From the NCBI RefSeq assembly GCF_988242995.1, contig NZ_OZ547043.1: DNA of 64,000 nucleotides, one strand, 5' to 3'. This document shows, in pieces, positions 1 to 16,142 of this stretch. A program made the position numbers and the translations under genes. The number at the start of each line of letters is the position of its first letter. The first letter of the stretch is position 1. The notes beneath the pieces are model-generated. The model ran no database searches. It had not been told where the DNA came from and was given only the letters and a program-made list of their open reading frames with translations.

Positions 1-1962
1 GTAACCGAGCGCTGCCTGGGTGTTGCTATTATTCGGTTCCAGTTCCAGCGCGGCGCGCAAATCACTCACCGCCGCCGGGACATTATGACGTTGGCGATAA
101 ATTGTCGCCCGCGCAACGTAAGCGTTGGCAGAAGGCGCAATATTGATTGAGCGCGTGAGATCGTTCAGTGCGAGTTCCGGCTGACCAGGAATGTAACGTT
201 GCGCATGCAGCCACCAGTAGAGGGCATTGTTTCCCAGCCCACGTTGTTCTGCCTGCTGAAGCCAGCGATCGCGAGCCGCACCATTTCCTGCCGCCTGGGC
301 GGTATTGGCAGCAGCAAGCAGATCCTCATTGCTCATGTCGTGAAGACTGATTTTCTGCCAGGCCGCCAGTGCGGTGGCGTAATCCTCAACCTGATACGCC
401 TGATAGGCTACCGCACGATGTTGCCAGGCGTTCGGTTGTCGTTGTTCGGCCTGAAGCCATGCATACAACGCCACACCGGGTAGCGTGTCCCGATAACACT
501 TTGCCAGACGGTTCCAGGCGGCGGCATCGTAGGAAGGCGACATATCGCCCAGCAAGCGAACTATTGCCGGGCAATTATCTGCAATACCCGGCAACTGACT
601 TTGCCACTGACGTTGCTCCGCCAGCGGTAAGGGTTTCGATAAAATCGCCACCTTCGCCGGCGTTGCCAGGTAAGGATGACTTTCCAGCAGAGACGCCAGT
701 CGCGCCATTAAAGTCTGGCTGACACGCGCATCGCCCTGGAAAGGATAGCGTTGCAGCAATAAATCGGCAGCTTCGCGTGACTGCTCGTTCTGCATCAGTT
801 GCCAGGTCAGTTGATCCAGGCGGGTAAGATTTTCCGGTTCTTGCTGATACAGCAATCGTGCCAGACGCAGAGCTTCAGCCTTGTTATGGGTCGCTACGCT
901 AACGGTATAACGCTCCTCAAGCATTTCATTGGCGGGGAGGGTGGCGAGCAGTTTTTGCGCTGCGTCGTACTGACCTTCTTTTAACAGCACCGGTAGCGTC
1001 GCGCCAACAACATACTGGCGGTTGTCAGCAAACTGTACCGTATAATTCGCCAACGCCTGAACGGGGTTGCCGCTGTATTTAGATAACAGATAGAGCCAAC
1101 TTTTCTCTTGTGCGTCCGTGGTAAATAGCGGCGTATTTTCAATGAGATAACGCTGGAGGCGTGCTTTTTCGTCACGATAAGCCAGCGCGGTCGCGTAAGT
1201 AATATATGACTGCGGATCGGTGAAGATCCCCTGTGATTGCAGCGCCAGGATCCGATCGTCCAGCTGCCCGGCAAGAAGCACATCAAACCACTGGCGGCGT
1301 TCTGCCGCGCTTAATGTGTTCTGCTGGCGTGCTTCATTGTATAGCGTATCTGCCTGGGACCATTGCTTCAGGTAGATTGCCCGTTGCAGCAGATCGGTTC
1401 GCAGCGTTTTTCCTTCCGGCGATGCAGCAAACGTCGCATCGTTCAGTTGCGCTCTGGCGACAGGTAATTGTGCCAGCCGCAGGGCATTCTGCCCAACTTC
1501 ACTGCGACAACGCAGGGTCGGCGCAGCATCGCACGCTTTTTGCTGGGCAAGCAGTTCTTCAACAGTCGTAACGCTTTTCACTTCAACTGGAATAGCCGCC
1601 AGACTGCGCTCAAGTCGGGCATCTCCTGGGTGACGTTTCAGTTGATCCTCAAGCAACAGCCGCGCCCGGTCATCATGACCAAAATGGCGATAGGCTTCCG
1701 CAAGGTATAAAGTTAGCGGAATATTATCCGGCACCTGCTGGTGTATATATTCAAATTCGCGGATGGCGGTTGCTTCGTCGTTATTTTTCTGTGCCTTCAG
1801 CGCCTTGTCGAGACGGGGATAAATAACAAAATGGCGATAATCGCTCAGCCCCAGCTCTTCTGCGCTGGTGCCGATATTGTCTGCGAGTGCGCTGGTACTC
1901 AATAAAGACGTCAGCAGTAAACCAGACCATCCGATGACGCGATTAAGGTTATTCTCCTTCAT
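1..1962 (-). CDS. nfrA: Bacteriophage N4 adsorption protein A (NfrA), TPR outer-membrane protein; N-terminal ~654 codons only, 3' end lies beyond window start
   Basis: Minus-strand ATG at 1960-1962 preceded by AAGGAGAA-type RBS, translating MKENN...; overlaps nfrB stop by 14 bp as in K-12. Not in ORF track because no stop inside window. Confidence 0.85.
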   Translation of the reverse strand, partial: MKENNLNRVIGWSGLLLTSLLSTSALADNIGTSAEELGLSDYRHFVIYPRLDKALKAQKNNDEATAIREFEYIHQQVPDNIPLTLYLAEAYRHFGHDDRARLLLEDQLKRHPGDARLERSLAAIPVEVKSVTTVEELLAQQKACDAAPTLRCRSEVGQNALRLAQLPVARAQLNDATFAASPEGKTLRTDLLQRAIYLKQWSQADTLYNEARQQNTLSAAERRQWFDVLLAGQLDDRILALQSQGIFTDPQSYITYATALAYRDEKARLQRYLIENTPLFTTDAQEKSWLYLLSKYSGNPVQALANYTVQFADNRQYVVGATLPVLLKEGQYDAAQKLLATLPANEMLEERYTVSVATHNKAEALRLARLLYQQEPENLTRLDQLTWQLMQNEQSREAADLLLQRYPFQGDARVSQTLMARLASLLESHPYLATPAKVAILSKPLPLAEQRQWQSQLPGIADNCPAIVRLLGDMSPSYDAAAWNRLAKCYRDTLPGVALYAWLQAEQRQPNAWQHRAVAYQAYQVEDYATALAAWQKISLHDMSNEDLLAAANTAQAAGNGAARDRWLQQAEQRGLGNNALYWWLHAQRYIPGQPELALNDLTRSINIAPSANAYVARATIYRQRHNVPAAVSDLRAALELEPNNSNTQAALGY

Positions 1963-4186
1963 TTTCGGACTCCAGTTGCGCAACCTGTTCTGTGTTTAAA
2001 CCTGCTTTGAGTAATAGTGATTGCATCGAAACTTGTAATTCGCGTTGAATTGTCAGGACGCGATCCAACGTTTCCTGGCTGATAACGCCTTCGGTGACCA
2101 AAAACTTGCCGAGCGGCAGAGAACTACGTTCATGGCGCAATAACAACACGTTAATTGCTGAACGATTAATATGACCGAGTGTGGTCAGTATTTCGGCGAA
2201 CAGGAACTGATGCGGCACATATTGCCGCCAGATTTCACCGGCCTGCTGTTCCGTGAGCCACTGATGCTGAACCGCATTGTACAACATTGCCCGCGGATCG
2301 TGACCGCGTCGGCGCGCATACCAGTGGCGTAACCCCGTGACAATTTGTCCCCGCAGAACAATGACGTAACGCACTTTGCGTCCGACTTTACGCGTCAGGG
2401 CCGCCAGCGAAACCGGGTCAATACCATCTTCACTGCCGACAATTAACTCATCATTTTCCAGACGCAGCGGCAGTACTGCATAATGCAGCGCCACGGAGGC
2501 CGGCATTTCGGCAATCAGTGATGAAGGGATCTGCCAGGCGTCGATCGACTCCCACGCCACGCCGTTTTGCTCTGCCAGCGCCTGTGCCAGCTGTTCGGCG
2601 CTAATCAGCCCCTGCATCAGCATTGAACCGCCCAGGCGTAGACCTTCGACGCGATTACGCAGTGCTGTATCGAGTTGTTCTTCAGTGATGACCTGATTTT
2701 CCAGCAGGATTTGACCTAACGGACGCAACGAGCGGGTATCGCCAGTCACGCTGGGGAAGTCATGCGTTGTTTTATCCCACGCGACACGACGTGGATCGCC
2801 GTGTTGAAGTACCTGTTTTAACGCGCGCCAGTTGGCCATGAAGTTAATCAGGTTGCCCCAGAAAAGACGCAGGACAGATAGCAGCCCCTGCGTCAGGCCG
2901 TAGTAGCCAGTAACGAAAATCACCCGCTGCACGATGCGGTTAATCATCAAGCCAAAGTTTAGCCACAGCAGAGTCATTAACCATGCGCTGCCGCTGAAAA
3001 TAGAAAGGAAATGCCAGGCATCGGGCCACAAACTTTCATACGCCAGCAACAGCAAAAGCTGGATCATCACCAGCATCGCGAGGAAGCTGACAAAGTTACT
3101 GATTGCCCCTTTGCGGTCGCGCCAGAGAAAGTAGTTCAGCGTCAGGCTGGAGGTCCATTTGTGGGTTTTAAAGCCCTGGAAAACAATGCCGATGATCCAG
3201 CGAGATTTTTGTCGAACCGCAGTCGAAAAGGTATCGGGGAAATATTCGCGCACGCAGATCATGTTTGACGTCCGCGCGTGCTGTAAAAATTTACGCTGCT
3301 CGCGTTCTTTGGCTTCGTCCACCACCGGAAAACGGACAAAAATTTCCGTCATACCTTTTTCTTTCAGGCGGAAACCAATGTCGTAATCTTCAGTAAGACT
3401 CTGCACGTCGAAAGCAATACCGTCACCGTCAGCTAACAGTGCGGTCACGGCGCGGCGGCTGAAACAGGTGCCGACGCCTGCGCTGGGCACTTGTCCGGCG
3501 AGGGCTTCACGCACCGGAACATCTTTGCCATGCAGTTCTGAAAACTCATCAATGTAAGTCATGCTGGTGAAGTGCGTCCATTCGCGTTCGAACGGATACA
3601 CCGGGATCTGAATCAGATCTTTACGCTCGACCAGATAGTTGAACAGACGCAATTCCATCGGTGAAATTACGTCTTCGGCGTCATGCAGAATAAAACCAGC
3701 AAAAGCGAAATTGGCGCTACGCTCAAACTGGGTGATGGCGTCCAGCACGTTGTTCAGGCAGTCGGCTTTGCTGGTGGGGCCAGGACGCGCGCAGACTACC
3801 TTATGCACATTCGGGAAGCGAGCGCACACTTCGTCAACATCACGCTGAGTATCGGGGTCGTTGGGGTAGGTGCCAACAAAGATATGATAGTTTTCATAGT
3901 CGAGCGTGGTCGCCGCCAGCTCGGCCATATTGCCGATGACGCCCGTTTCATTCCACGCCGGAACCATAATCGCTAACGGTTTTTCATCTGGTTTATACAG
4001 TTCGCGGTAACTCATTCGCGGGTAGCGGCGATAAACACTCAACTTGCGTTTAATGCGGCGTACCCAGTAGACGACATCAATAAAAAAATCGTCCAGCCCG
4101 CTGATGAACATGATGACCGCTAACGTTATCGCGATTACTTTTAAGCCGTAGAGCCAGGTAGCAAAAACATCAAGAAGCCAGTCCAC
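1949..4186 (-). CDS. nfrB: Bacteriophage N4 adsorption protein B (NfrB), inner-membrane glycosyltransferase, 745 aa
   Basis: ORF track 745 aa, MDWLLDVFATWLYGLK..., full-length match to remembered NfrB; GTG start. Confidence 0.95.
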   Translation of the reverse strand: MDWLLDVFATWLYGLKVIAITLAVIMFISGLDDFFIDVVYWVRRIKRKLSVYRRYPRMSYRELYKPDEKPLAIMVPAWNETGVIGNMAELAATTLDYENYHIFVGTYPNDPDTQRDVDEVCARFPNVHKVVCARPGPTSKADCLNNVLDAITQFERSANFAFAGFILHDAEDVISPMELRLFNYLVERKDLIQIPVYPFEREWTHFTSMTYIDEFSELHGKDVPVREALAGQVPSAGVGTCFSRRAVTALLADGDGIAFDVQSLTEDYDIGFRLKEKGMTEIFVRFPVVDEAKEREQRKFLQHARTSNMICVREYFPDTFSTAVRQKSRWIIGIVFQGFKTHKWTSSLTLNYFLWRDRKGAISNFVSFLAMLVMIQLLLLLAYESLWPDAWHFLSIFSGSAWLMTLLWLNFGLMINRIVQRVIFVTGYYGLTQGLLSVLRLFWGNLINFMANWRALKQVLQHGDPRRVAWDKTTHDFPSVTGDTRSLRPLGQILLENQVITEEQLDTALRNRVEGLRLGGSMLMQGLISAEQLAQALAEQNGVAWESIDAWQIPSSLIAEMPASVALHYAVLPLRLENDELIVGSEDGIDPVSLAALTRKVGRKVRYVIVLRGQIVTGLRHWYARRRGHDPRAMLYNAVQHQWLTEQQAGEIWRQYVPHQFLFAEILTTLGHINRSAINVLLLRHERSSLPLGKFLVTEGVISQETLDRVLTIQRELQVSMQSLLLKAGLNTEQVAQLESENEGE

Positions 4187-4373
4187 ACAAAAACCTTACA
4201 TTAACGCTGGTTATGTTTAGGGTGGCGTATATTAAGGTTTTTTATGAATTGTGACAGCTTTTTACCATTAATAGGTATGACTATTGCGGCACGTTATTTT
4301 TACACTGGTTATAAAAGTTGCCGTTTGCGTAGAATGTAGACAAAAGCGTGGTGTCAAGGAGGGGAGGTTAACG

Positions 4374-5663
4374 CAGGGCAAGATTACGAAAGCCCGCTCC
4401 CCGCAAGGACTGACGCGAGATAGTTTCTGCCCATGGCTGCTTTTCGCATCTTACGTCTTAACCCTGCCTTGAATATCTTATCATTCGTTAAAATATTAAT
4501 AGCGATGTGCCGTATCCCTGAATATAATTCTGCGGCGTTTCCTCTTCTTATTTTGCAGTCGTCTTCATTCATTACCACGTCCAGACGCCAGTGCAGCTTA
4601 TTCTCCACGTGCCAGTGGTTTCGGATTGCTGTGGCGAACTTCTCTGCGGTTAAATCAGCAGAACTGATATAATATCTGACCGTCATTTCTGGCTCTTTCT
4701 TTTGTTCTGCTATTATTGACCGAAAGGAGACTGCCACACATAATTTCTTCAGTCCTTTCCATTCAAACGTGAAATCAATAAGTTCATCAGGGACATCGCA
4801 AACAATATGAAGACGGATTTCTTCTCTGCCGTGACTCTTTTCACTAATGGCGTAACTGTCATGCTCTGGATTATTTAATTCTTTCAGTGGAAATTTTTCC
4901 TCAAAGGCTTTATTAAGCCGCCCCTGGTTTCCTTTTACAGCGAATAAATAATCACCGCCCTGTTTTTGTATCTTCTCTGCAATATCTTTCTGGCAACCCA
5001 TCGCATCAGTTGTGATGATTTTTCCTTTAATATACAGCATGTTAAGAAGTTCTGGGATAGCTGTAATCTCATTAGATTTCTCATCCGTTCTGATCTGTCC
5101 GATGACCAGACTGTGCATTGTTGAGAACGCACTAATGACATGAATCGCTCCCCTGCGGCGACTCTTGTCATAAGAATGCCGGAGTGTTTTTCCATCGATT
5201 GCAATAACGTCTTTATCATCTGAAGTATGGCAATCTCGCATCCAGTTAATAAAGCACTCGTGAAATTTTGAAGGACTGATACAGGATACAACTCTGGCGA
5301 TGGTATCGTGAACAGGAATACCATTTTCAAAATCACCATATTGTTTTAAAAAATCGAGATGTGTTTCCCCAAAATCCTCTATATCTTCCCAACCTTCTGC
5401 ACCAGAAATAACGGCACAAATAGTCAACAGTAGAATATCCGATAATTTATGTTCCACTTTCCAGGCTTGTCTGTAATCGGGGATAATAGAAATATGCTCC
5501 ATCAATTTTTTAAGTTCCATTTTGTTCTCCTTAATTATGTAAGGAGTATTTGATCATGTATAAGCAATAAAAACAGCTTTAGGTAATGAGGAATATCTCA
5601 ATTTTTAAACATAAAATGCGAATTATTTAGTACAAAAAAGCAGCGTTACGTGATCTTTCCCTG
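4374..5663 (-). mobile_element. ISAs1-family insertion sequence (H-repeat / ISEc1-like), ~1.29 kb
   Basis: Contains H-repeat transposase ORF; imperfect terminal inverted repeats beginning CAGGG (left CAGGGCAAGATTACG near 4374, right ...ATCTTTCCCTG ending near 5663). Boundaries approximate. Confidence 0.6.
4384..5520 (-). CDS. ISAs1-family transposase (H-repeat-associated protein, YhhI-like), 378 aa
   Basis: ORF track [32 protein letters not shown]..., characteristic of Rhs-associated H-rpt proteins; strong AAGGAGA RBS upstream. Confidence 0.9.
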
Positions 5664-5743
5664 GTGTACTTCTGATGATCTTTCCCTGGGTTAAACAGGT
5701 GGTGAAGGGAATGAAGAATGGGATATCCGGCGTATTACGCGAG

Positions 5744-5780
5744 GTATAAAAATAAAAGCCGGGAGATTGTCACTCCCGGC
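5744..5780 (-). terminator. Rho-independent terminator downstream of the Rhs immunity gene (hairpin GCCGGGAGATTGTCACTCCCGGC flanked by T-runs on both strands)
   Basis: Perfect GC-rich inverted repeat at ~5758-5780 with T-run on the minus strand immediately after. Confidence 0.5.
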
Positions 5781-5786
5781 AACATA

Positions 5787-6068
5787 TTATTTTTTTATTT
5801 CATTATATCTGATAAAAAAAGTATTTAGTGCATCATGTTCATCTTGTGAGAACAATAAAATAATTTTATCCCATGAATGTCCTGTTACTCCATAATAGTC
5901 TTCAATATAAGATTGAAGCCTTATTAATATCTCAATATTGACGATTTCTTTTGGCTCTCTCATTTGCCATCCATCCAGGAAAGCTTTTAACGCCGATATG
6001 GTATGCCTGCTTAAATATAAAGCTGGTCTTTTTTCTATCATATCAATCAGTTTAACAATATCATTCAT
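5787..6068 (-). CDS. Putative Rhs immunity protein (RhsI-like), 93 aa, no recognised family
   Basis: Small ORF starting 2 bp after the rhs stop, AT-rich like the rhs 3' toxin-encoding end; this position is canonical for the cognate immunity gene. Function by position only. Confidence 0.55.
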   Translation of the reverse strand: MNDIVKLIDMIEKRPALYLSRHTISALKAFLDGWQMREPKEIVNIEILIRLQSYIEDYYGVTGHSWDKIILLFSQDEHDALNTFFIRYNEIKK

Positions 6069-6070
6069 AA

Positions 6071-9000
6071 TTAAAACCTTGATGGAGTAATGGTGTATTC
6101 GCCAGGAGAGTATATATCATTCAGCCAATCTTCATACTTTATACCAGAAGGATTCATATTATCAAAAACTGTATCACCTACTTTTATTGCTTCATGATGA
6201 CCATTAGTTGCTATATTTTTACCTATTCTATCACTCCATATATTGCCAAAGGCGCCTTGTTTATTTTTAGTTTCGAGTATGAGATGCTCACCATTTACCC
6301 CAGCTTGTTGCATTTTACTTTTTAACGCTGCGGCAAATTTATCGCATTGAAAAAGCTGTTTAAACTTATCACTTATTGTTGTTGCAAGATCCCTTGTTTT
6401 TGCGATATCGCAAATGGTTAATCCTAATGGATCAATATAACCAAGGGGATTATGAACATATGCATAATTGTTTATCCCGCCTCTCAGCCCTATCGGATCA
6501 CTCACCAGGTACATCCCGGTTTCCGGCTCGTAATACCGGAACCGGTTATAGCACAGCCCGGATTCCGCATCCTGCCACTGTCCTGCATACAGCAGGCCGG
6601 GGTCGGCTTCCGGGTCCAGCTCCCCACGCGGGTCCGGGTAGCCGGTGTCTGCGGGCAGGCTGAGTGCCAGCCCCCACAGGCTGGTCTGTCCCGGTCGCCA
6701 GACGGTTTTACCTTCACTGTTAAAGAGCATCAGCGGCCGGCCCGTCAGGTCGCTCACCGCATGATTCGTCCGCGTCACCCACTGCGGGGCCACGGACGGA
6801 TGCGCCTGCCGTACCCGGCTGCACTGCTGGCTTATCAGCTCAAAGCCGTTAAACACCAGGTGCCGCACACTGTACAGTTTATCATCGCGGTATTCCCGGA
6901 TTTCCGCAATACTGTCGCCATCCCACAGGTACGTAAAACGGATTTTCTTCCGGTCGCAGCGTTTCTCTGTTCGTCTGCCGCTGGCATCGTGGCGGTATTC
7001 CCACTGTTCACCCTGTGCGCTGCAATACCCGGTCAGCTGGTCCCGGCTGTCCCACCGGAACCGCTCTGTTTCCGGGCGGTAACCGTCACGGTGTCTGGTG
7101 CGGCTGACCATCCGGCCTGCGGCGTCATAGTCATACTGCGTGTTTCCGGCCTGTTTCAGCCGGTGGCCTCCGGCATACTGGTCAGTCTCTTCACTTATCC
7201 GGTGCCTGCCCGCAGACTGCGCCTTCAGGTAGCCGCAGCTGTCATAGCCATAAGTCTCATCGCCTTCGCCATAGCCCAGCCCGGTGCCTGAGGCTGTCAC
7301 CGCCGTGACCTGGCCGTTCCGGTCCAGCCGGTACTCCCGCCGTGTTTCCCGTCCGTAGTCTTCCCGGCTGGTGACAGCCGACACATTACCCGCGCTGTCG
7401 TAACGGTACTCCCGCACCAGTGAGGGGAGCAGCCCGCCCCATGTGGCTTCCGCCGGGAAAAATCCGGCGCGCTGGCTGACAGCCTGACCGGCTGCATTCC
7501 AGCCCTGCTCACAGGCAAAACCCCGGTTACTGTGCCGGAGCACTTCACGTCCTGCCTCATCACGGCTGAACGTCAGCGTCTCATCCCCCGGCAGGATAAC
7601 CTCCGTCAGTTCTCCGGCGGCGTTGTAGCGGTAGGTGGTTTTCAGCAGGGATTCACCGGGGTGTCTGTCGCGTTCATCTTCCGGTGGCAGGATACAGCGG
7701 ATGACGGTGTGTTCATCGGGGTGGTGGTATTCAATGGCCCGTCGGCCCTGAGTGGTGACATTCACCCGGCCGCGTTCGTCATAGCCGGTGCGCTGTGATG
7801 TGCCGTCCGGGCTGAAGATACCCGTCAGCCTGCCGGATTTGTCATACGCATACTGCGTTTTGCCTTCCGGCGTGATGACTTCTGCCAGGCGGCCTGCGGC
7901 GTCCCGGCTGTAGAGGATAGTTTCCTCCAGGCCGTTGACCCTGGCGGTACACAGGCCATCGGCGTCATAGCGGTAACGCCAGACCACGCCGCCCCAGTCA
8001 CGCTCTTCCGTCACCCGGCCGCAGTTATCCAGAACATAAAGATATGACTCACCCTGCGGATTGATGACTTCTGTCAGTTGCAGCGTGTCTTTATCGTAGC
8101 GGTACTGCCAGCGGTGGCCTTCACCGTCCGTTCGCGCCACCGGCAAATCAAACGGGCCGTACTCCATTGTCCAGACAACGCCATTGCCGTCCGTCCAGGC
8201 CAGCAGGTTGCCGTGGCGGTCGTTGCGGAATCCTTCCGCGCCGGTTCCAGTGCGCTCAAGGCCGCTCAGTTTATGGTGCTGCTGCCACTGCAACCGCACT
8301 GACTGACCGCCGGGGCCGCGCATCTTCACCGGCAGGTCGTGACCACTGTATTTGGTGTGGTGTTCGCGGCCCATCACGTCGGTGAGTGTTTCCGGCCGGT
8401 TGTGGCGGTCGTACTCTATGCCCAGACGCCGTTCATCCTGGCGGAATATCCCCGACAGCAGCCCCTGAGCGGTGTATGCCAGCCGGGTCTCTTCGCCCTG
8501 TGGCGACACCTGACTTACCGGCAGGCCGCGTTCATCACACTGCTGTGTCCACGTCTGCCCGGCAGGGTCGGTGATGTTGCTGAGCAGGCCGCGCTCATCA
8601 TAGCGGTACAGCCACTCCGCGCCGTCTGCCGCCGTGTAACGGCTTAACTGACCGAGTGCGGCGTTGTCTTCAAATTTCTCCACCCGCCCGGCAGGGGAGT
8701 GGCGGGCCAGCAGGTGATGGAATTCATCCCATTCATACGTGGTGGTACTGCCGTCCGGCGCGTCTTCCCGCAGGATATTGCCGTCAGGATCATAGTAATA
8801 ACGGTGAATGCCCTTGCCGTCCGTCACGGTGGTGCAGCCGTCCCCATAGTCCAGCGTGGCGTTGTAATAGCCCTCCGCCCCGGTGACGGTCACGCACCGG
8901 CCCTGTGTATCGTAGGTGAAACGGCTCCACGTCTGGTCGTTATCGGACCAGCGGATGATCCGGTCCGCATCGTCGTACTCATAAAACAGGTGGTAGTCCA

Positions 9001-10735
9001 GCCGCGCATCCGCTTCTGTCAGCCGCCCCCGCGCATCCTGTTCGTAGGTCGCCAGCGTCTGTATGCCGTTATCCGTGCGGTGAATGGCTTTCAGGTAGCC
9101 GCTGGCGTGGTACGTCAGTTTAAGCCGGATCCCGTCAGTGTGACTGACACCTGTGATCCGGTACTGGCTGTCGCGCTCAAACGTGATGCGGTTGCTGGCG
9201 GTGTCGCTCATCCCGCCCAGCATGTACATCCGGTCTGCGGGGCTGTGTGCCAGACGGTCATCGCTGGTATCGTCAGTCACCGGGTGGCGCAGACGCATTC
9301 CCGGAAAGGCGTCATAAAAGAAGCGGCTGCTCAGTGCATCCCTGTCGAACAGCTCCAGGTAATCATCGCGGCGGCGCAGAATGTACTGGGCGTGATACGG
9401 GTTAACCGCCGTATCACTGTCACCGTCGAAGGCAAATCTCAGCGTGGTTCCCTGGCTGATGATATCCACCCGGTTTCCCTGTTCACGCACCCAGGCGTAT
9501 TCGCTCCAGGAGTCGCTCCAGCCCACGCCCGTCAGGCCATGCAGTGGCAGTACAGAACTGTGGAAACGGGTGAAGGAGAGGGGGAGTGTCTGGCCCAGCG
9601 TAAAGTCGGTACGTTCGTCGCAGTATGCGCCGGTTACCGGATCGACAGGATCTGTTACCCATCTGATGACTTTATTGGCAATACTTTTTAACGACTTACC
9701 TGTTTTCCCCAGCAACGCGCCGAGCTTTGCCCCCAGCAGCTTCCCGCTTTTCCCCAGCAGGTTTCCCAGTTTGCCGAGTCTCGCCAGATTCTTCAGTTTT
9801 CCCAGCAGTCCCGCTGGCGGCAGAAGATAGCTGGCTATCGTTATTCCCCCCAGGATCATTCTCTGCCACGGCGGGAACTCCGGCTGGATATCCAGATAGG
9901 TGACCTGCTCACCCCCAATAAAGACGTCCGGCGAACCTTCCACGATTGCCGCACTGCACTCCAGTTTGTCCCCCTTGCGTGCAGCAGGCTGATTGTTGAT
10001 AAAGACGTTGCTGCTGCCCTGGGCTATCCTCGGCGGTTTGTTCTCCTTGTCGCAGAGCGCCGTGTCCTCACCGGCTTCCGGGAAATCCACGTCTTTTTTG
10101 ATTTCGCCACGCCCGCCCACCATGGTGGCAAACTCCATTAATACCGGACCGGCGGGAAACAGAAGCGATGCGCCGGCGCTGACGCGATCCATAATACCGG
10201 CATTGCTGTCCGTCAGGGTGATAACAGCGTTCCCCCAGGCCTTCGCCAGTGGTACTGCTTTTTCCGCTGCCGATTCAAGCAGGTCAGTGGCAATATCCCC
10301 CCATGAAGGTTCCCCCTGTGGTAGAGAGGGTATTGCTTCAGTCAGGGGAGGAGGGGGAAGGGTGACGGCGGCCCTGGCAGCGGGCTTTCCGTTAATTTTT
10401 ACATTTTTAGAACCAGTATTGATGGCCCCGTCCTTGTCACAAAAGCTGTTTATCCATGACTCAAGCTGGTTCTGTTTCTCCTCCACATAATCACTCGCCT
10501 TATAGCTGGCATACATCAGCGCAGGCACCAGAACCAGCGCATAAGGGCCGGTGGCGCAGGCGGCCATAATCAGGCAACCTTCTGCGATAGTTACTATCGC
10601 CCCCAGCACGGCCCCTGCCAGTGCCCCCAGAAAACTTTTATGCTGAATTTCATCGTCCAGTCTGGCGGCAGGTGGGCCGGACTTCTTTGCTGCCAGCATC
10701 TCTGCAATGGCTTTGTCGTTGGCTGCCCGTTTCAT
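6071..10735 (-). CDS. rhs: Rhs-family T6SS effector: N-terminal prePAAR motif ([10 protein letters not shown]) and transmembrane segment, PAAR domain, YD-repeat core, DPxGL cleavage motif, unrecognised 115-aa C-terminal toxin domain; 1554 aa
   Basis: ORF track 1554 aa; repeated YD/RYxYD motifs, PAAR motifs, ...[27 protein letters not shown] near C-terminus. Start could instead be Met13 (about 10699). Confidence 0.9.
   Translation of the reverse strand: [1554 protein letters not shown]
6074..6418 (-). other. Variable C-terminal toxin domain of the Rhs protein (residues after DPLGL), AT-rich, family not recognised
   Basis: Base composition shifts from the GC-rich rhs core to AT-rich downstream of the DPxGL motif, typical of displaceable Rhs-CT/immunity cassettes. 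Confidence 0.7.
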
Positions 10736-10886: not shown

Positions 10887-11348
10887 TCAGCGCGGCTGGT
10901 CCTGTTTGATATTCTTCTCCGGCGGTAATGGTGTGAAGCTCTTTATCACATCGAGCAGCATCGTCTTTTGACTGTTCTTAAGGGGTAAAGACGTACTGAA
11001 CGTGAAGGTCAGCAGCGTATCACCACGCCGCTGAAATACGGCTATCTGGCTAATCCGCCCCTGATTCCCTTCATCTTCCGGACCGTTCCAGGAATAATCC
11101 AGCAGCCAGGCCGGGGCCTCTGCCAGAGTGATTTCCCGGCAGGCATGTTCGGTGTAACCGTCCAGCTTGCCCTGGTACAGCGCCAGCGTTTCCTTGTACA
11201 GTTCTGGTGTCAGGGTTCCCTGTGGAACGGGTTCGCGGGTAATGACCAGGTTGATGCCACTGTTATCTGTGGACACCAGGACCTGCATTGACTGATCCTG
11301 CCATTGCGATGGCAGCTGAATATGACCTTCATTAAAAGTGAACTGCAT
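10887..11348 (-). CDS. DUF1795-family (EagR-like) effector-associated chaperone, 153 aa
   Basis: ORF MQFTFNEGHIQLPSQWQDQSMQVLVSTDNSGINLVITREP... lying between vgrG and a prePAAR Rhs effector; AGGGAG RBS. Confidence 0.75.
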   Translation of the reverse strand: MQFTFNEGHIQLPSQWQDQSMQVLVSTDNSGINLVITREPVPQGTLTPELYKETLALYQGKLDGYTEHACREITLAEAPAWLLDYSWNGPEDEGNQGRISQIAVFQRRGDTLLTFTFSTSLPLKNSQKTMLLDVIKSFTPLPPEKNIKQDQPR

Positions 11349-11375: not shown

Positions 11376-13277
11376 TCAGTTAATGAAAACAGAACCGCCC
11401 ACGATGGTGATGCCATCCTTCGACAGCCTGATTACCGTCGATTCCCCGACCTGTAGCTGAATGCCATCCGGCGTCAGCGCAATTTTGCTTTCCTCCACGG
11501 CCAGCATAATTTGCTTAATTGCCGTATAAGCCTGTATACCGTCGCCTTCGCCACCATTGTTTACAGCGTCAACATGCACTGAACCGGCAATCGTGCCTCT
11601 GTCCTGAAAAACATCCTCAGATAAAGACCCTTTTAGTACGCCTGTGATTTTGTGGCCTTTTTCCACCGTAAGAAGGCGGTTACCTTCCTGGATCGTGACC
11701 GTCTGGTCATTTTTTACGGTTTCGCGGTGATCGTGTTTTACGGTGGTGGTACGGTCGTTGAGTACCTCGGTATCCATGTTCTTCTGGGCGTGGATGTAGA
11801 CCTGTTCTTTCCCTGTCGCATCGTCAAACTTCAGCTCGTTAAACCCGCTGCCCATATATGTTTTGGAGCGGATGGTCATCTGCGTCTTCGTTCCCGGCAG
11901 GCTGCCCGGCGAGCGGTTATCTTCGTGGTAGGTGCGCCCCATAATGATCGGCTGGTCCGGATCGCCGTTGAGGAAGTCCACAATGACCTCCTGACCCACA
12001 CGCGGTATCGCCAGATTGCCGAACCCGGCTCCTGCCCACGCCTGTGCCACACGGATCCAGCACGAACTGTCCTGGTCTGCCGGGTTATAGCGGTCCCAGT
12101 TGAATTTCACCCGCACCCGGCCATGCTCGTCGCAGAAGATTTCCTCTCCCGCAGGCCCCGTCACGACGGCGCTCTGTGGACCGTCCACTGACGGCTTTGG
12201 CTTCGGCTGTGGCCGCCACGTCCGGTCTGCCGGGATTACCACAAACTGGTTCTCCAGCGCCGTCCCCGCGCCCCGCCGTCCCGGCACCGCCTGCGGCTGT
12301 TCGCCGTGCAGTTCGCTCGCCACCACCTGCCATTCCCGGTTCAGGTTCGCCTGCGGATGCTCCGTCAGCACAATTCGCCGTCCCGGCCATATCTCCGGCG
12401 AGCGGCTCATTCCCCGCGCGGTTTCTGCGTTGTTTCGCCAGCCGTCCATCTGCCAGCGGGCAAAGTTCTGCCCGTGGGCGCTCTTGAAACGCCCGGGGTA
12501 GTCATACACTTCATACTGCGTGCGCTGGTAGTCCTGGTGCTGGCCTTCCTGTTCAAAACGTCCGGCCCAGCCGGGGCGTTTAAAGGTGTAGTCTTTGGTC
12601 ACCACGGAAGAAGGGCGGATTTGTGCGCTGTAGCGGAACTGGCTGATGCAGAGGGTGCTCACCTCGGTACGGGTGTTCGGGTTCCATGGGATTTCAAAAG
12701 ATTCGGGCAGATGGCGGACTGTGTCGCACAGCACCAGGCTCTGGTCGGTACTTTTGTAAGCATGCTCCTCATAAAAGAAGATGCCTTCCTCCGCCGCCAT
12801 CCGGCACAGGAAATCGTAATCAGTCTCACCGTACTGGACACAAAACTCACGGGAAGGATGCGGCTCGCTGAACAGCGGACTCCATTCGGTCACCCCGTTT
12901 TCCTGCAACATCGTGCCGAGGATGCTTCTGATGTCCTCGTTCTGGAAGATACGGAAGTTCTGACGCAGTCCTGCCCGCCACAGCGGCGGGCGCACCTTCA
13001 TGCTGTACAGCATCTGGTTTTTGTCGTTCTCCCCGAGTTCAAACCAGGTCACCACGCCTTTCACCCGGCGCTGTACGTCATCGCCCTGCCATACCGTCAG
13101 GTAGGCCATTTTGTCCAGCACCTGCGCAAATTCAAGGTAGAGAAACTGCTGACTGACCAGAGAAAGGTCAAGGGAAAAAAGTGAAGAGAGTGACTGGGTG
13201 AGATGAAAGGAGACCACCGCAAAAGCGTCCGGTGGCAGGCCGTCCACTTCCAGTGTGAAACGTAATCCGGTTGACAT
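11376..13277 (-). CDS. vgrG: Type VI secretion system spike protein VgrG (Rhs-element Vgr protein), 633 aa
   Basis: ORF track translation contains MSTGLRFTLEVDGLPPDAF... ending ...KDGITIVGGSVFIN; start moved to Met13 (ATG at 13277 with GGAGG RBS). Confidence 0.9.
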   Translation of the reverse strand: MSTGLRFTLEVDGLPPDAFAVVSFHLTQSLSSLFSLDLSLVSQQFLYLEFAQVLDKMAYLTVWQGDDVQRRVKGVVTWFELGENDKNQMLYSMKVRPPLWRAGLRQNFRIFQNEDIRSILGTMLQENGVTEWSPLFSEPHPSREFCVQYGETDYDFLCRMAAEEGIFFYEEHAYKSTDQSLVLCDTVRHLPESFEIPWNPNTRTEVSTLCISQFRYSAQIRPSSVVTKDYTFKRPGWAGRFEQEGQHQDYQRTQYEVYDYPGRFKSAHGQNFARWQMDGWRNNAETARGMSRSPEIWPGRRIVLTEHPQANLNREWQVVASELHGEQPQAVPGRRGAGTALENQFVVIPADRTWRPQPKPKPSVDGPQSAVVTGPAGEEIFCDEHGRVRVKFNWDRYNPADQDSSCWIRVAQAWAGAGFGNLAIPRVGQEVIVDFLNGDPDQPIIMGRTYHEDNRSPGSLPGTKTQMTIRSKTYMGSGFNELKFDDATGKEQVYIHAQKNMDTEVLNDRTTTVKHDHRETVKNDQTVTIQEGNRLLTVEKGHKITGVLKGSLSEDVFQDRGTIAGSVHVDAVNNGGEGDGIQAYTAIKQIMLAVEESKIALTPDGIQLQVGESTVIRLSKDGITIVGGSVFIN

Positions 13278-14020
13278 AGCAACCTCCGTGAAAATGAATA
13301 ATAATCCGCACATATTGCATGTACAACATGTCGGGTAATGAGATAAGCGGGCCGGCTTCAGGTGTTACCGGGGAATATCAGAAAAGTGTCATGGTTATGT
13401 GAGAATTTTGTCCGGGATTTTACTTCAGAGAAACGGGGGTCTGTTGAGTCAACAAAATAATCACAAACTCAACTGACGGGTTCACGATGTTATTAAGGAC
13501 AGGCTCGTATATTACATCGAGTAACAAAAAAACACCTGATATGCAAAGTTAAACCAATATTCATAATGTCTTTTTATTCACAGTAATAAATAATTCAATA
13601 AACATCATTGAAATGAATGATGGTTTGTATAAGGAATATACGCTACCGCCCCACCCTGATAACATGATCTGCACATTGCCATCTTAACGTCGTTAGACGC
13701 TGGCTTAATAGTGAATATTTTAAATTAGGAATTTATCAAATCCACTTGATAAATAGATTGTGTGAATAATATAGAGATTAATGATGCCTGACTGCGCTTT
13801 ATATTATAGCCGATTCTTTTATAGTGATGAAAATTTAGTAATAGCATTGTGCTCTACAATTGGTAGAAACACGAATTTGATTAAATTGCATATCTAAATA
13901 TCTCGTAAATATCCGAAAATGAATAACCTTCGATTTCAGACGACCAATAAGGTCTTCCCTGTTTTATTGATAAATAATAACAGAAGGCGATACATCACTC
14001 TTTGAGTTTGAACTAACTAA

Positions 14021-15469
14021 TTAACCTTTCTCCGGTAGTTTGATCATAAACCTTGTTCCCCGCGCATCTGACGTTACCGCAACCGTGCCTTTATGCGCGA
14101 CAACAATTGATTTCACTATCGCCAGGCCAATGCCGCTACCTTCGCCTTTTCGCTGGCGGGAAGGATCAACGCGGTAGAAACGGTCAAACAATCGCGGTAA
14201 GTGTTCGGGCGCAATGGGCGTACCGGGGTTTTCGACGGAAACTTGCACCTGGTGATCGACCGTCTGGCAGCGCACAACAATTGCCTCTCCGGGTGGCGTA
14301 TAACGCAGGGCGTTCGAAAGCAGGTTGCTTAACGCCCGACGCAGCATCAGCGGATCGCCCGCAACCTGACACTCGTCACCAACAAACCGCAACTCCACGC
14401 CGCGATCTTCCGCTAACGCCTCGAAAAAATCGAACACTTTGCCGACTTCATCCGCCAGGTTGAGCATTTTCTTTTCGGGGATTAACTGGTTGTTATCGGC
14501 CTGGGCGAGAAACAACATATCGCTGACCATTTTCGCCATTCGCGTCAGCTCTTCGAGATTAGAGTAGAGCACATCTTCCAGCTCCTTCTGGCTGCGTGAC
14601 TGGCTGAGGGCGATTTCGGTTTGCGTTATGAGATTCGTAATTGGTGTACGAATTTCGTGAGCGATATCCGCTGAGAAATTGGACTGGCGAGTAAAGACAT
14701 CCTCAATACGCTCGATCATATGGTTGAACGACAGTACCAGCTGTTCCAGCTCAATCGGCACGGTCTGCGGGTCAAGGCGAACGTCGAGATCTTTCGAGGT
14801 GATATTCTGGATTTGACGGCTGACGCTGCGGATCGGCGCGTGACCTTTATGTACCGCCAATAGCACGATAAAGACGATCAGGATGCTGATGATCGATGCG
14901 GTCATAATAAGTTTATTCATCAAATCATTTATGTAATGAAGATGAAAATCGATCGAAAGCGCGATGTAGAGCGTATAAATCGGTTTGCCGTCCACCAACG
15001 GGCCAACCGGCAAGTTAATCATCCGCCAGTTGCTGTGTTCCATATGCCCGTGACCGTGGCCCGGCATCATCATTGTCGGGCCGGAAAGGAGATACACCTC
15101 GCCGCCCCGCGCGTCTTTATCGGGTATGGCATCACGTGCAAACTCGCGGATATCGGGCGCACCGGGGGAGTGATATACCGTTTTACCGTGGCTATCTGCC
15201 AGGGAGATCAACACATTGGAATAACCACTGACAATATCTTCCAGCGTCATTAAGCGTCGGGCTTGCGTTTCGTCAGGGTGATTAAGTACCCGTTCAAGTG
15301 TGGCGCTAATTTCTTTTAAATCATTAATATCCTGCTCGGCAAAATGCACTTTTACCGAGTGGATCATTATCCATGCAAAGGCGAAAAACGCCGCGATGGT
15401 GGCGAGGCTGATAAAAAAGGTCAGGCGGGTTGCCAGCGAAAACGGGCGCTGAAATGGCTTACTGACCAT
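14021..15469 (-). CDS. cusS: Copper/silver sensor histidine kinase CusS
   Basis: ORF track match to CusS; start set at [16 protein letters not shown] (ATG at 15469), overlapping cusR 3' end by 11 bp. Confidence 0.95.
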
Positions 15470-16142
15470 CCGGCACCTCAAGCATGTAACCCACGCCGCG
15501 CACGGTTTGAATCAGCTTCGGCTCAAAGTCGTTGTCGATTTTGCCACGCAGCCGCTTCACCGCCACATCAATGGCGTTAGTGTCGCTGTCGAAATTCATG
15601 TCCCACACCTGCGAGGCGATAAGCGAGCGGGGCAGCACTTCGCCCTGATGGCGAAGGAAAAACTCCAGCAGAGTAAACTCTTTACTGGTCAGAGTGATGC
15701 GCGTACCGCTGCGGGTGACTTTGCGGCTGACGAGATCGACCATCAAATCGGCAACCTGAAACTGACTTTCGATAATCACCGCCGCCCCGCGCCGCAGTAA
15801 TGTGCGCACCCGCGCCAGCAGTTCAGCAAAAGCGAATGGCTTCACCAGGTAGTCATCTGCCCCCAACTCCAGCCCCTTGACGCGATGTTCAATGGTGCCA
15901 AGCGCGGTAAGCAACAGAATCGGCATCCCTTTATTGGCGGAACGCAACATACGCACGATATCCCAGCCGTTCACGTCTGGCAGCATAATATCGAGGATTA
16001 TCAGGTCATAATCACCGGTCATCGCCAGATGGTAGCCATTCAGCCCGTTGTCGGCCAAATCGACCACAAAACCGGCTTCGGTTAACCCTTTGGTCAAGTA
16101 TTCTCCGGTTTTCTTTTCATCTTCGACAATCAACAGTTTCAT
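15459..16142 (-). CDS. cusR: Copper/silver response regulator CusR, 227 aa
   Basis: ORF track [20 protein letters not shown]..., OmpR-family; GGAGG RBS. Confidence 0.97.

Follow-up and report, generated by a model that had tools for sequence, protein, structure and literature searches.

A solo 25-bp right repeat beside an intact H-repeat at the tail of a vgrG-rhs island

Downstream of a PAAR-Rhs gene, the right end of an H-repeat insertion sequence (IS) carries the 14-bp motif TGATCTTTCCCTGG twice. The two exact copies lie in direct orientation at positions 5651-5664 and 5676-5689 of the window (the whole 64,000-nucleotide stretch analysed), and their starts are 25 bp apart, as a preliminary description of this DNA had noted. 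By our own estimate, an exact direct repeat of 14 bp within 30 bp is expected by chance about 0.007 times per 64 kb. The locus therefore raises two questions: which of the two copies terminates the element, and how did the other one come to lie beside it? The features discussed below are compiled in Table 1.

Table 1. Features at the nfrB-side end of the island and beyond; positions refer to the window.
Feature	Position	Strand	Basis or remark
Island DNA between nfrB-upstream backbone and left end of the IS, 44 bp	4330-4373	.	K-12 comparison
H-repeat, ISEc1-type IS of the ISAs1 family, 1,290 bp	4374-5663	- (strand of transposase gene)	CAGGG...CCCTG termini; bounds from 11 full copies with unrelated flanks
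Left terminal inverted repeat CAGGGCAAGATTACGAAAGCCCGCT, 25 bp	4374-4398	+	19/25 against the reverse complement of 5639-5663
Intact DDE transposase gene, 378 aa	4384-5520	-	ORF, Pfam and NCBIfam; same DNA as in NRZ14408 (L001), annotated there as WP_001589846.1
Terminal inverted repeat at the right end of the intact element, subtype B (A+GCAGCGTTACG+TGATCTTTCCCTG)	5639-5663	-	holds the inner motif copy
Solo right inverted repeat from another H-repeat, subtype A (G+TGTACTTCTGA+TGATCTTTCCCTG), 25 bp	5664-5688	-	holds the outer motif copy; identical to A-type ends
3' fragment of a type I toxin gene of the symE family, final 19 codons and stop (VKQVVKGMKNGISGVLREV*)	5690-5749	+	alignment to the intact 110-codon symE of L012/L013
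GC-rich terminator-like hairpin	5758-5780	.	between the convergent symE remnant and immunity gene
Presumed immunity gene of the Rhs tip, 93 aa	5787-6068	-	no family match
prePAAR/PAAR-Rhs protein, 1,554 aa, with C-terminal Tox-PL-2 (papain-fold) toxin	6071-10735	-	Pfam RHS_repeat, PAAR_motif, prePAAR_I, DUF6531, Tox-PL-2
DcrB-related gene	10887-11348	-	completes the island with vgrG
vgrG	11376-13313	-	TIGR03361, 625 bits
cusS	14021-15481		beyond the island

The island lies between nfrB and cusS and is missing from K-12; nfrA and nfrB are present on the left side of the window. With VgrG, a PAAR-Rhs protein with a C-terminal toxin, and an adjoining small putative immunity gene, it is a vgrG-linked Rhs effector island of the type VI secretion system. 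K-12 shares its nfrB-cusS intergenic sequence with the window, without a difference, as far as about position 4329 and diverges thereafter, so that 44 bp of island DNA remain to the left of the IS. The element had been placed at the island edge; it lies near that edge, 44 bp inside the nfrB-side boundary, and not exactly at it. Relative to the rhs gene it occupies the classical place of an H-repeat, as had been proposed: it begins 408 bp past the stop codon of the PAAR-Rhs gene, with the 93-aa gene in between, and both are co-oriented. This layout, with the H-repeat downstream of the Rhs tip, is common to all relatives fetched.

The identity of the element is clear. Its 378-aa protein matches the Pfam families DDE_Tnp_1_assoc (PF13808, 1e-34) and DDE_Tnp_1 (PF01609, 3e-29) and scores 411.8 bits with the NCBIfam equivalog NF033564, "ISAs1 family transposase" (cutoff 70), and its gene is base for base the same as in strain NRZ14408. 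Over 1,290 bp, the IS shares 95-97% nucleotide identity with copies annotated as "ISAs1-like element ISEc1 family transposase". Size and short terminal inverted repeats fit the ISAs1 family, whose members in ISfinder are about 1.2-1.5 kb long and carry such repeats. Matches to the H-repeat were found in 5,425 of 5,426 complete E. coli genomes, and the 64-kb window contains a single copy, with no further element or end motif beyond the doubled end. The window element is thus of a known kind, namely an ordinary E. coli H-repeat, and the previous assignment to the ISAs1 family with a 378-aa transposase is confirmed.

In order to delimit the element, the window was compared with ten further full copies from E. 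coli (L001-L004, L011, L014) and from metagenome contigs (L023, L043, L056, L062). In all 11 copies, the similarity extends from CAGGG to CCCTG (CCCTA in L056), the flanks differ, and the base following CCCTG is G, C, T or A. The element therefore ends with the CCCTG at 5663, which makes the inner motif copy its terminus. The first base of the left CAGGG is at 4374, where the preliminary description had also placed the start; the right boundary given there, 5700, has to be moved to 5663, and 5689, the end of the outer motif copy, is not the boundary either. When the reverse complement of the right end (CAGGGAAAGATCACGTAACGCTGCT) is compared with the left end, 19 of 25 positions match (12 of 14 in the terminal part), followed by only one match in the next ten, so that the terminal inverted repeat is 25 bp long. 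The imperfect inverted repeats starting with CAGGG are real; the end lies where the inner copy had been located, and no single long inverted repeat takes in the second motif. Target-site duplications of about 8-10 bp are reported for members of the ISAs1 family; beside the 11 full copies no such direct repeat was seen, but all of these lie in rearranged DNA downstream of Rhs.

The outer motif copy belongs to a second element. The sequence at 5664-5688 (GTGTACTTCTGATGATCTTTCCCTG) matches the terminal 25 bp of the A-type elements L029, L045 and L081 at 25 of 25 positions. This match to genuine H-repeat ends, together with the low chance expectation, rules out a fortuitous repeat, and we conclude that the outer copy belongs to a right inverted repeat left solo by another H-repeat. 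While the two 14-mers are identical, the 11-bp blocks just inside them agree at 2 of 11 positions only. The outer unit is therefore not a duplicate of the window element's own terminus. Of the two possibilities raised earlier, the remnant of a second IS end holds, and a rearranged, self-duplicated terminus does not. It is hardly credible that the outer copy is nevertheless the true terminus, or that the repeat is a chance match or an assembly artefact: full copies stop at the CCCTG equivalent to the inner one, the outer unit is a perfect match to real A-type ends, and analogous structures occur in many independent complete genomes and metagenome contigs. A resemblance of the outer 25-mer to the symE sequence that it replaced was also considered; 11 of 23 positions agreed in a MAFFT alignment (counted by hand), which was judged to be chance. 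The solo repeat is probably a scar without function.

The A and B designations refer to a general dimorphism of H-repeat right ends. Among copies that share 96-97% identity elsewhere, the 11 bp immediately inside the terminal 14 bp come as either of two unrelated blocks. The B block is GCAGCGTTACG (in K-12 RhsC, the variant GTAGCGTTACG) and the A block is TGTACTTCTGA, of which small variants exist. The B block prolongs the inverted repeat with matches at 7 of 11 positions; the A block does so at 2 of 11. B-type ends of the GCAGCG form are present in 1,415 of 5,426 complete E. coli genomes, and A-like ends (at least 90% identity) in at least about 4,350 records. The right end of the window IS is of the B subtype. 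The exchange of blocks is a same-length substitution of 11 bp within the 25-bp inverted repeat (window 5639-5650 and 5665-5675; L002 7441-7451; L014 7031-7041). Moreover, the A block, which has no match in the left end, forms with the sequence preceding it a perfect hairpin, AGTACA-N6-TGTACT.

The exact 39-mer junction of the doubled end in the window was found in none of the 5,426 complete E. coli genomes, which cover it solely via gapped alignment to a different arrangement. Doubled right ends as such recur. A composite junction query detected five doubled forms other than that of the window in 168 of the 5,426 genomes (about 3%). When metagenomes were scanned for pairs of end motifs within 30 bp, many H-repeat cases emerged, to which GTDB added one match. 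Note that the same criterion applied to GTDB representative genomes returned six loci, of which L005 alone is an H-repeat and the others are unrelated repeats. Defining a configuration by its inner end type, its remnant and its flank, eight independent ones were tabulated. A remnant of 12 bp (present in four copies in L021), one of 18 bp, and one of 34 bp (L005/43/77) are each represented by one configuration, and a remnant of 25 bp is represented by five: B|A in the window, A|B in L029/71/81/82, B|A'' in L030/46/51/76, A|A in L045, and B|B in L075. Each of these five has its own flank. Wherever the context of a doubled end was fetched, it is located downstream of an Rhs or PAAR toxin module, in one orientation. 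The commonest remnant, 25 bp, is exactly as long as the terminal inverted repeat. By chance, at least five of eight configurations would coincide in one of 31 detectable lengths with a probability of 6e-5, or of 0.02 for a conservative count of three of six; these values refer to a census that is biased, since the scan detects remnants of 12-42 bp in direct orientation only, and remnants of 118, 200 and 380 bp were met incidentally. The number of independent events may be smaller, because some of the 25-bp cases share the outer unit and could descend from a doubled-end element that has moved.

It was considered whether a doubled-end H-repeat of 1,315 bp is itself mobile, the outer 25 bp being part of the transposed element. 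The recurrence of outer units beside different flanks (A in the window and L045, B in the L029 group and L075) is what such an element would produce. However, the inner subtype differs within each of these pairs, so that an additional recombination would still be required; no doubled form with identical inner and outer units was seen at two loci; the 39-mer of the window is absent from the genomes searched; and all other copies that share this nfrB junction stop at the position equivalent to the inner terminus. We regard this explanation as improbable.

Another possibility is that the terminal 25 bp were duplicated locally in tandem, by replication slippage or by staggered nicking and fill-in, and that the inner or outer unit was later converted to the other subtype by recombination with another H-repeat. 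Two of the five 25-bp configurations are indeed perfectly homotypic tandems (L045 and L075), and the fourfold terminal 12-mer in L021 resembles slippage within an already existing tandem. For the 25-bp unit, slippage has nothing to pair, because there is no microhomology at its edges (...ACAAAAA versus ...CCCTG). The divergence of the 11-bp blocks next to identical 14-mers is likewise at odds with a duplication, and each block is a widespread subtype. In addition, conversion of the inner block would have required a crossover inside the 14-bp repeat, three times independently. This reading, too, has little to recommend it, and the solo repeat is better regarded as the remainder of a second H-repeat.

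For doubled left ends, a search with six junction variants at +25 and +35 gave no match; as an exact seed of 28 nt was required, the test is a weak one. Otherwise, combined H-repeat copies (tandem, nested, or partial copies abutting full ones) are common. In K-12 RhsC, an H-repeat is cut at ...AGTACAAAAAG and abuts the left tip of the next copy. In the lineage located between yafV and ivy (L021 900-947; L023, L062, L078), the terminal 12-mer GATCTTTCCCTG occurs twice, and four times in L021; there, a preceding second H-repeat is truncated at its position 1100 and abuts the left tip. Beyond the doubled end at RhsE-type loci (L076 3539-3790; L056 2505-2730) lies a segment of about 170 bp whose own end is TGATCTTTCCCTG, a sequence that occurs as a 13-mer tandem in many contigs from food and gut metagenomes. 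In L076, this segment is followed by a diverged 78-bp fragment of an H-repeat right end, and up to four right-end remnants are stacked in the same orientation at RhsE-site loci.

The same locus was compared among strains. The left junction ...GGTTAACG|CAGGG is common to the window, L001, L002/L011 and L003, and the sequence on the right side differs by strain. In L001, an A' end adjoins a fragment of an Rhs core; in L003, a B end adjoins another Rhs fragment; and in L002/L011, a full A-type IS is followed by a 118-bp remnant of a B-type end and the last 29 codons of symE, which is the mirror image of the window. The left flank is matched by about 2,800 genomes, and among the matches listed all stop at the left end of the IS. 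An empty site, searched for as the 44-bp left flank joined to the start of symE, was found in no genome. Within the 44 bp (4330-4373), a Shine-Dalgarno-like AAGGAGGGGAGG is followed by GTTAACG, loosely resembling the symE leader AGGAGTAGTTAATCATG of L012; the segment might be the remnant of a gene start that was cut by the IS. The full-length relatives closest to the island, at 97.5% identity, include L011 (strain JNE23-011; 4384-5520); their transposase gene is interrupted by an internal stop, and an additional orphan rhs fragment is present in their Rhs region. In the window, the transposase gene is intact and rhs is present once, at full length.

Positions 1-5638 of the window differ from NRZ14408 (L001/L080) at two sites only, across nfrA, nfrB and the body of the IS. 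From the 11-bp block onward, the two sequences are unrelated, and to the right of the island, from a dcrB-like gene through cus and pheP, they are 96.2% identical. Judged from this alignment, the end of the near-identical tract of at least 5.6 kb, which falls within the last 60-80 bp of the IS, evidently marks a breakpoint of homologous recombination. The right end of the IS is thus the meeting point of two ancestries, with NRZ14408-like sequence on the nfrB side and sequence that is 96% identical or unrelated on the other. A homologous exchange that broke inside the IS end would explain why a body of the NRZ14408 (A') lineage is joined to a B end, and the exchange presumably used the H-repeat as the last stretch of shared homology. 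It had been suggested that the H-repeat can mediate rearrangement or mobilisation of the island. The comparison shows a breakpoint of homologous recombination at the right end of the IS; mobilisation of the island finds no support, and the element is the only copy in the window. H-repeats may hence serve as portable homology for the exchange of Rhs-tip cassettes.

The cassette that borders the solo repeat is rare. The combination of toxin tip, immunity gene and symE occurs in seven complete genomes only. The 93-aa protein encoded in the window is identical to WP_001561591.1, which lies beside a papain-fold toxin in L002, L011, L012 and L013; its presumed role in immunity is based on its position and on this co-occurrence with the toxin tip. 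A full-length symE ORF comprises about 110 codons; in the window, the last 19 codons are left as a pseudogene fragment. The corresponding fragment in L002/L011 is annotated by RefSeq as partial SymE. An Rfam search of positions 3900-6300 revealed neither SymR nor any other match. In three of the seven genomes, symE is intact and located inside an element encoding XerC-like and primase-like proteins. For example, L012 and L013 (E. coli d1-58 and PEC395; 3258-4804) contain the papain-fold toxin tip, the immunity gene and an intact symE as an orphan cassette at a non-Rhs locus, flanked by genes for XerC-like recombinases and CHC2 zinc-finger (primase-like) proteins.

Three independent right-end junctions of H-repeats lie within symE or directly ahead of it, all in one orientation. 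The junction of L004 is 7 nt ahead of the ATG, and those of L002 and the window are at codons 82 and 92, respectively (symE coordinates: window 5690-5749; L012/L013 3731-4060; L004 2551-2880). A conserved unit of H-repeat and symE was considered and dismissed, as the L004-type junction is found in just 83 of 5,426 genomes, which represent one lineage. GTTAA adjoins three independent H-repeat junctions, namely GGTTAACG|CAGGG and CCCTG|GGTTAAAC in the window (4366-4373 and 5689-5696) and CCCTG|GTTAATC in L004 (2544-2550). This could reflect a target preference or be a coincidence. For annotation, the outcome at the tail of the vgrG-rhs island is routine: an intact ISEc1-type element, a 25-bp solo end and a symE pseudogene fragment.

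Considering these findings, we think it likely that the solo repeat arose when the transposase joined the right tip of an H-repeat to the inner edge of the right repeat of a resident H-repeat, whose body was subsequently lost. Strand transfer by the transposase is suggested by the junction itself, because the exact IS tip (CCCTG) meets the interior of an H-repeat without homology across the joint; slippage or homologous recombination would not create such tip-exact junctions. Transposition of H-rpt has not been observed experimentally (PMC3032704), and tip-exact junctions to new targets are indirect evidence for it. The history of the window may then have begun with an A-type H-repeat that was joined to codon 92 of symE, downstream of the Rhs immunity gene. 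The right tip of a second H-repeat would have been joined 25 bp from the tip of this resident. The body of the resident could have disappeared through homologous recombination between the two direct copies, or an IS-mediated adjacent deletion could have removed it in the same step. Afterwards, a homologous exchange with a donor resembling NRZ14408 would have overwritten nfrA-nfrB and the IS body up to the last 60-80 bp. This additional recombination step, with a crossover in that short interval, is needed because the body is of the NRZ14408 (A') lineage and the end is of the B type.

The preference for a distance of 25 bp is suggestive of a reaction in which the transposase, bound to the 25-bp repeat of the resident, acts as the guide. 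As A and B ends both occur as the inner, tip-joined end, both would be substrates. A more general proposal, which we put forward tentatively and consider less probable than its opposite, is that the H-repeat transposase homes to resident H-repeats by binding their 25-bp right repeat and directing the incoming right tip to its inner edge. If this were true, the collapse of two copies would leave a solo 25-bp repeat, and end subtypes would be swapped at a fixed chromosomal junction. H-repeats would stay restricted to the downstream ends of Rhs loci and to a single orientation, which would explain both the long-known Rhs-H-rpt association and the tandem arrays, and an element regarded as inactive would have moved repeatedly in natural E. 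coli. Two observations speak against the strand-transfer history as a whole: target-site duplications were seen at none of the 11 full copies, and nested pairs in which both junctions survive (K-12 RhsC, L023/L078) do not match a simple insertion but require at least two events or events of the deletion type. If confirmed, the 25-bp preference would provide, for the first time, evidence that H-repeats choose their targets and are active in nature, and it would give a simple reason why these elements stay at Rhs loci. For the time being, the recurrence of 25-bp solo repeats is a small regularity and a modest new detail, which is apparently unreported: no description of it was found in the literature searched. 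Jackson et al. 2009 (PMC2935791) do not discuss H-repeats, and a preprint on the K-12 mobilome mentions ISAs1 only in passing.

Among known systems, the H-rpt/ISEc1 copies of K-12 (yhhI, ydcC, and the RhsC tandem ybfD/ybfL/ybfQ) are closest to the window element. They share the 378-aa ISAs1 transposase, the CAGGG...CCCTG ends and the location downstream of an Rhs tip/immunity pair with a transposase gene co-directional with rhs, and RhsC likewise contains nested and tandem H-repeat pieces. In contrast to them, the window combines a B end with a solo 25-bp A repeat at the nfrB-cusS vgrG-rhs island.

Targeting of resident ends is a feature of IS30 and IS911, which belong to other families and transpose in copy-out/paste-in fashion. 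In IS30 IR-targeting and IS911 targeted transposition, a transposase-bound end guides a new strand transfer, which leads to abutting copies and cascades of rearrangements (PMC9333248); the H-repeat configurations would be loosely analogous on our reading. IS30, however, integrates outside the targeted inverted repeat and produces IRL-IRR junctions only (PMC9333248), whereas the right tip of the H-repeat would be joined to the inner edge of the resident's right repeat, within the resident itself, so that direct IRR-IRR arrangements result. IS1272 of Staphylococcus aureus (IS1182 family) is reported to insert into inverted-repeat structures without target duplications and to have larger forms in which terminal sequence of the IRL side is duplicated in tandem (PMC5678879). 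The doubled terminal sequence is shared with the H-repeat, and insertion without target duplications may be; family and host are different, the left end is affected, and the duplicated stretch is part of longer variants of the element and does not represent a 25-bp scar left by another subtype.

IS-mediated adjacent deletion is classical for IS1, Tn3-type and IS903-type elements, and to our knowledge it has not been demonstrated for any member of the ISAs1 family. The locus resembles its outcome in that the nfrB-side left junction is constant (window, L001, L002, L003), and the other end is joined to varied targets with loss of DNA. Unlike in classical adjacent deletion, several endpoints of H-repeats lie inside other H-repeats, at one preferred position.
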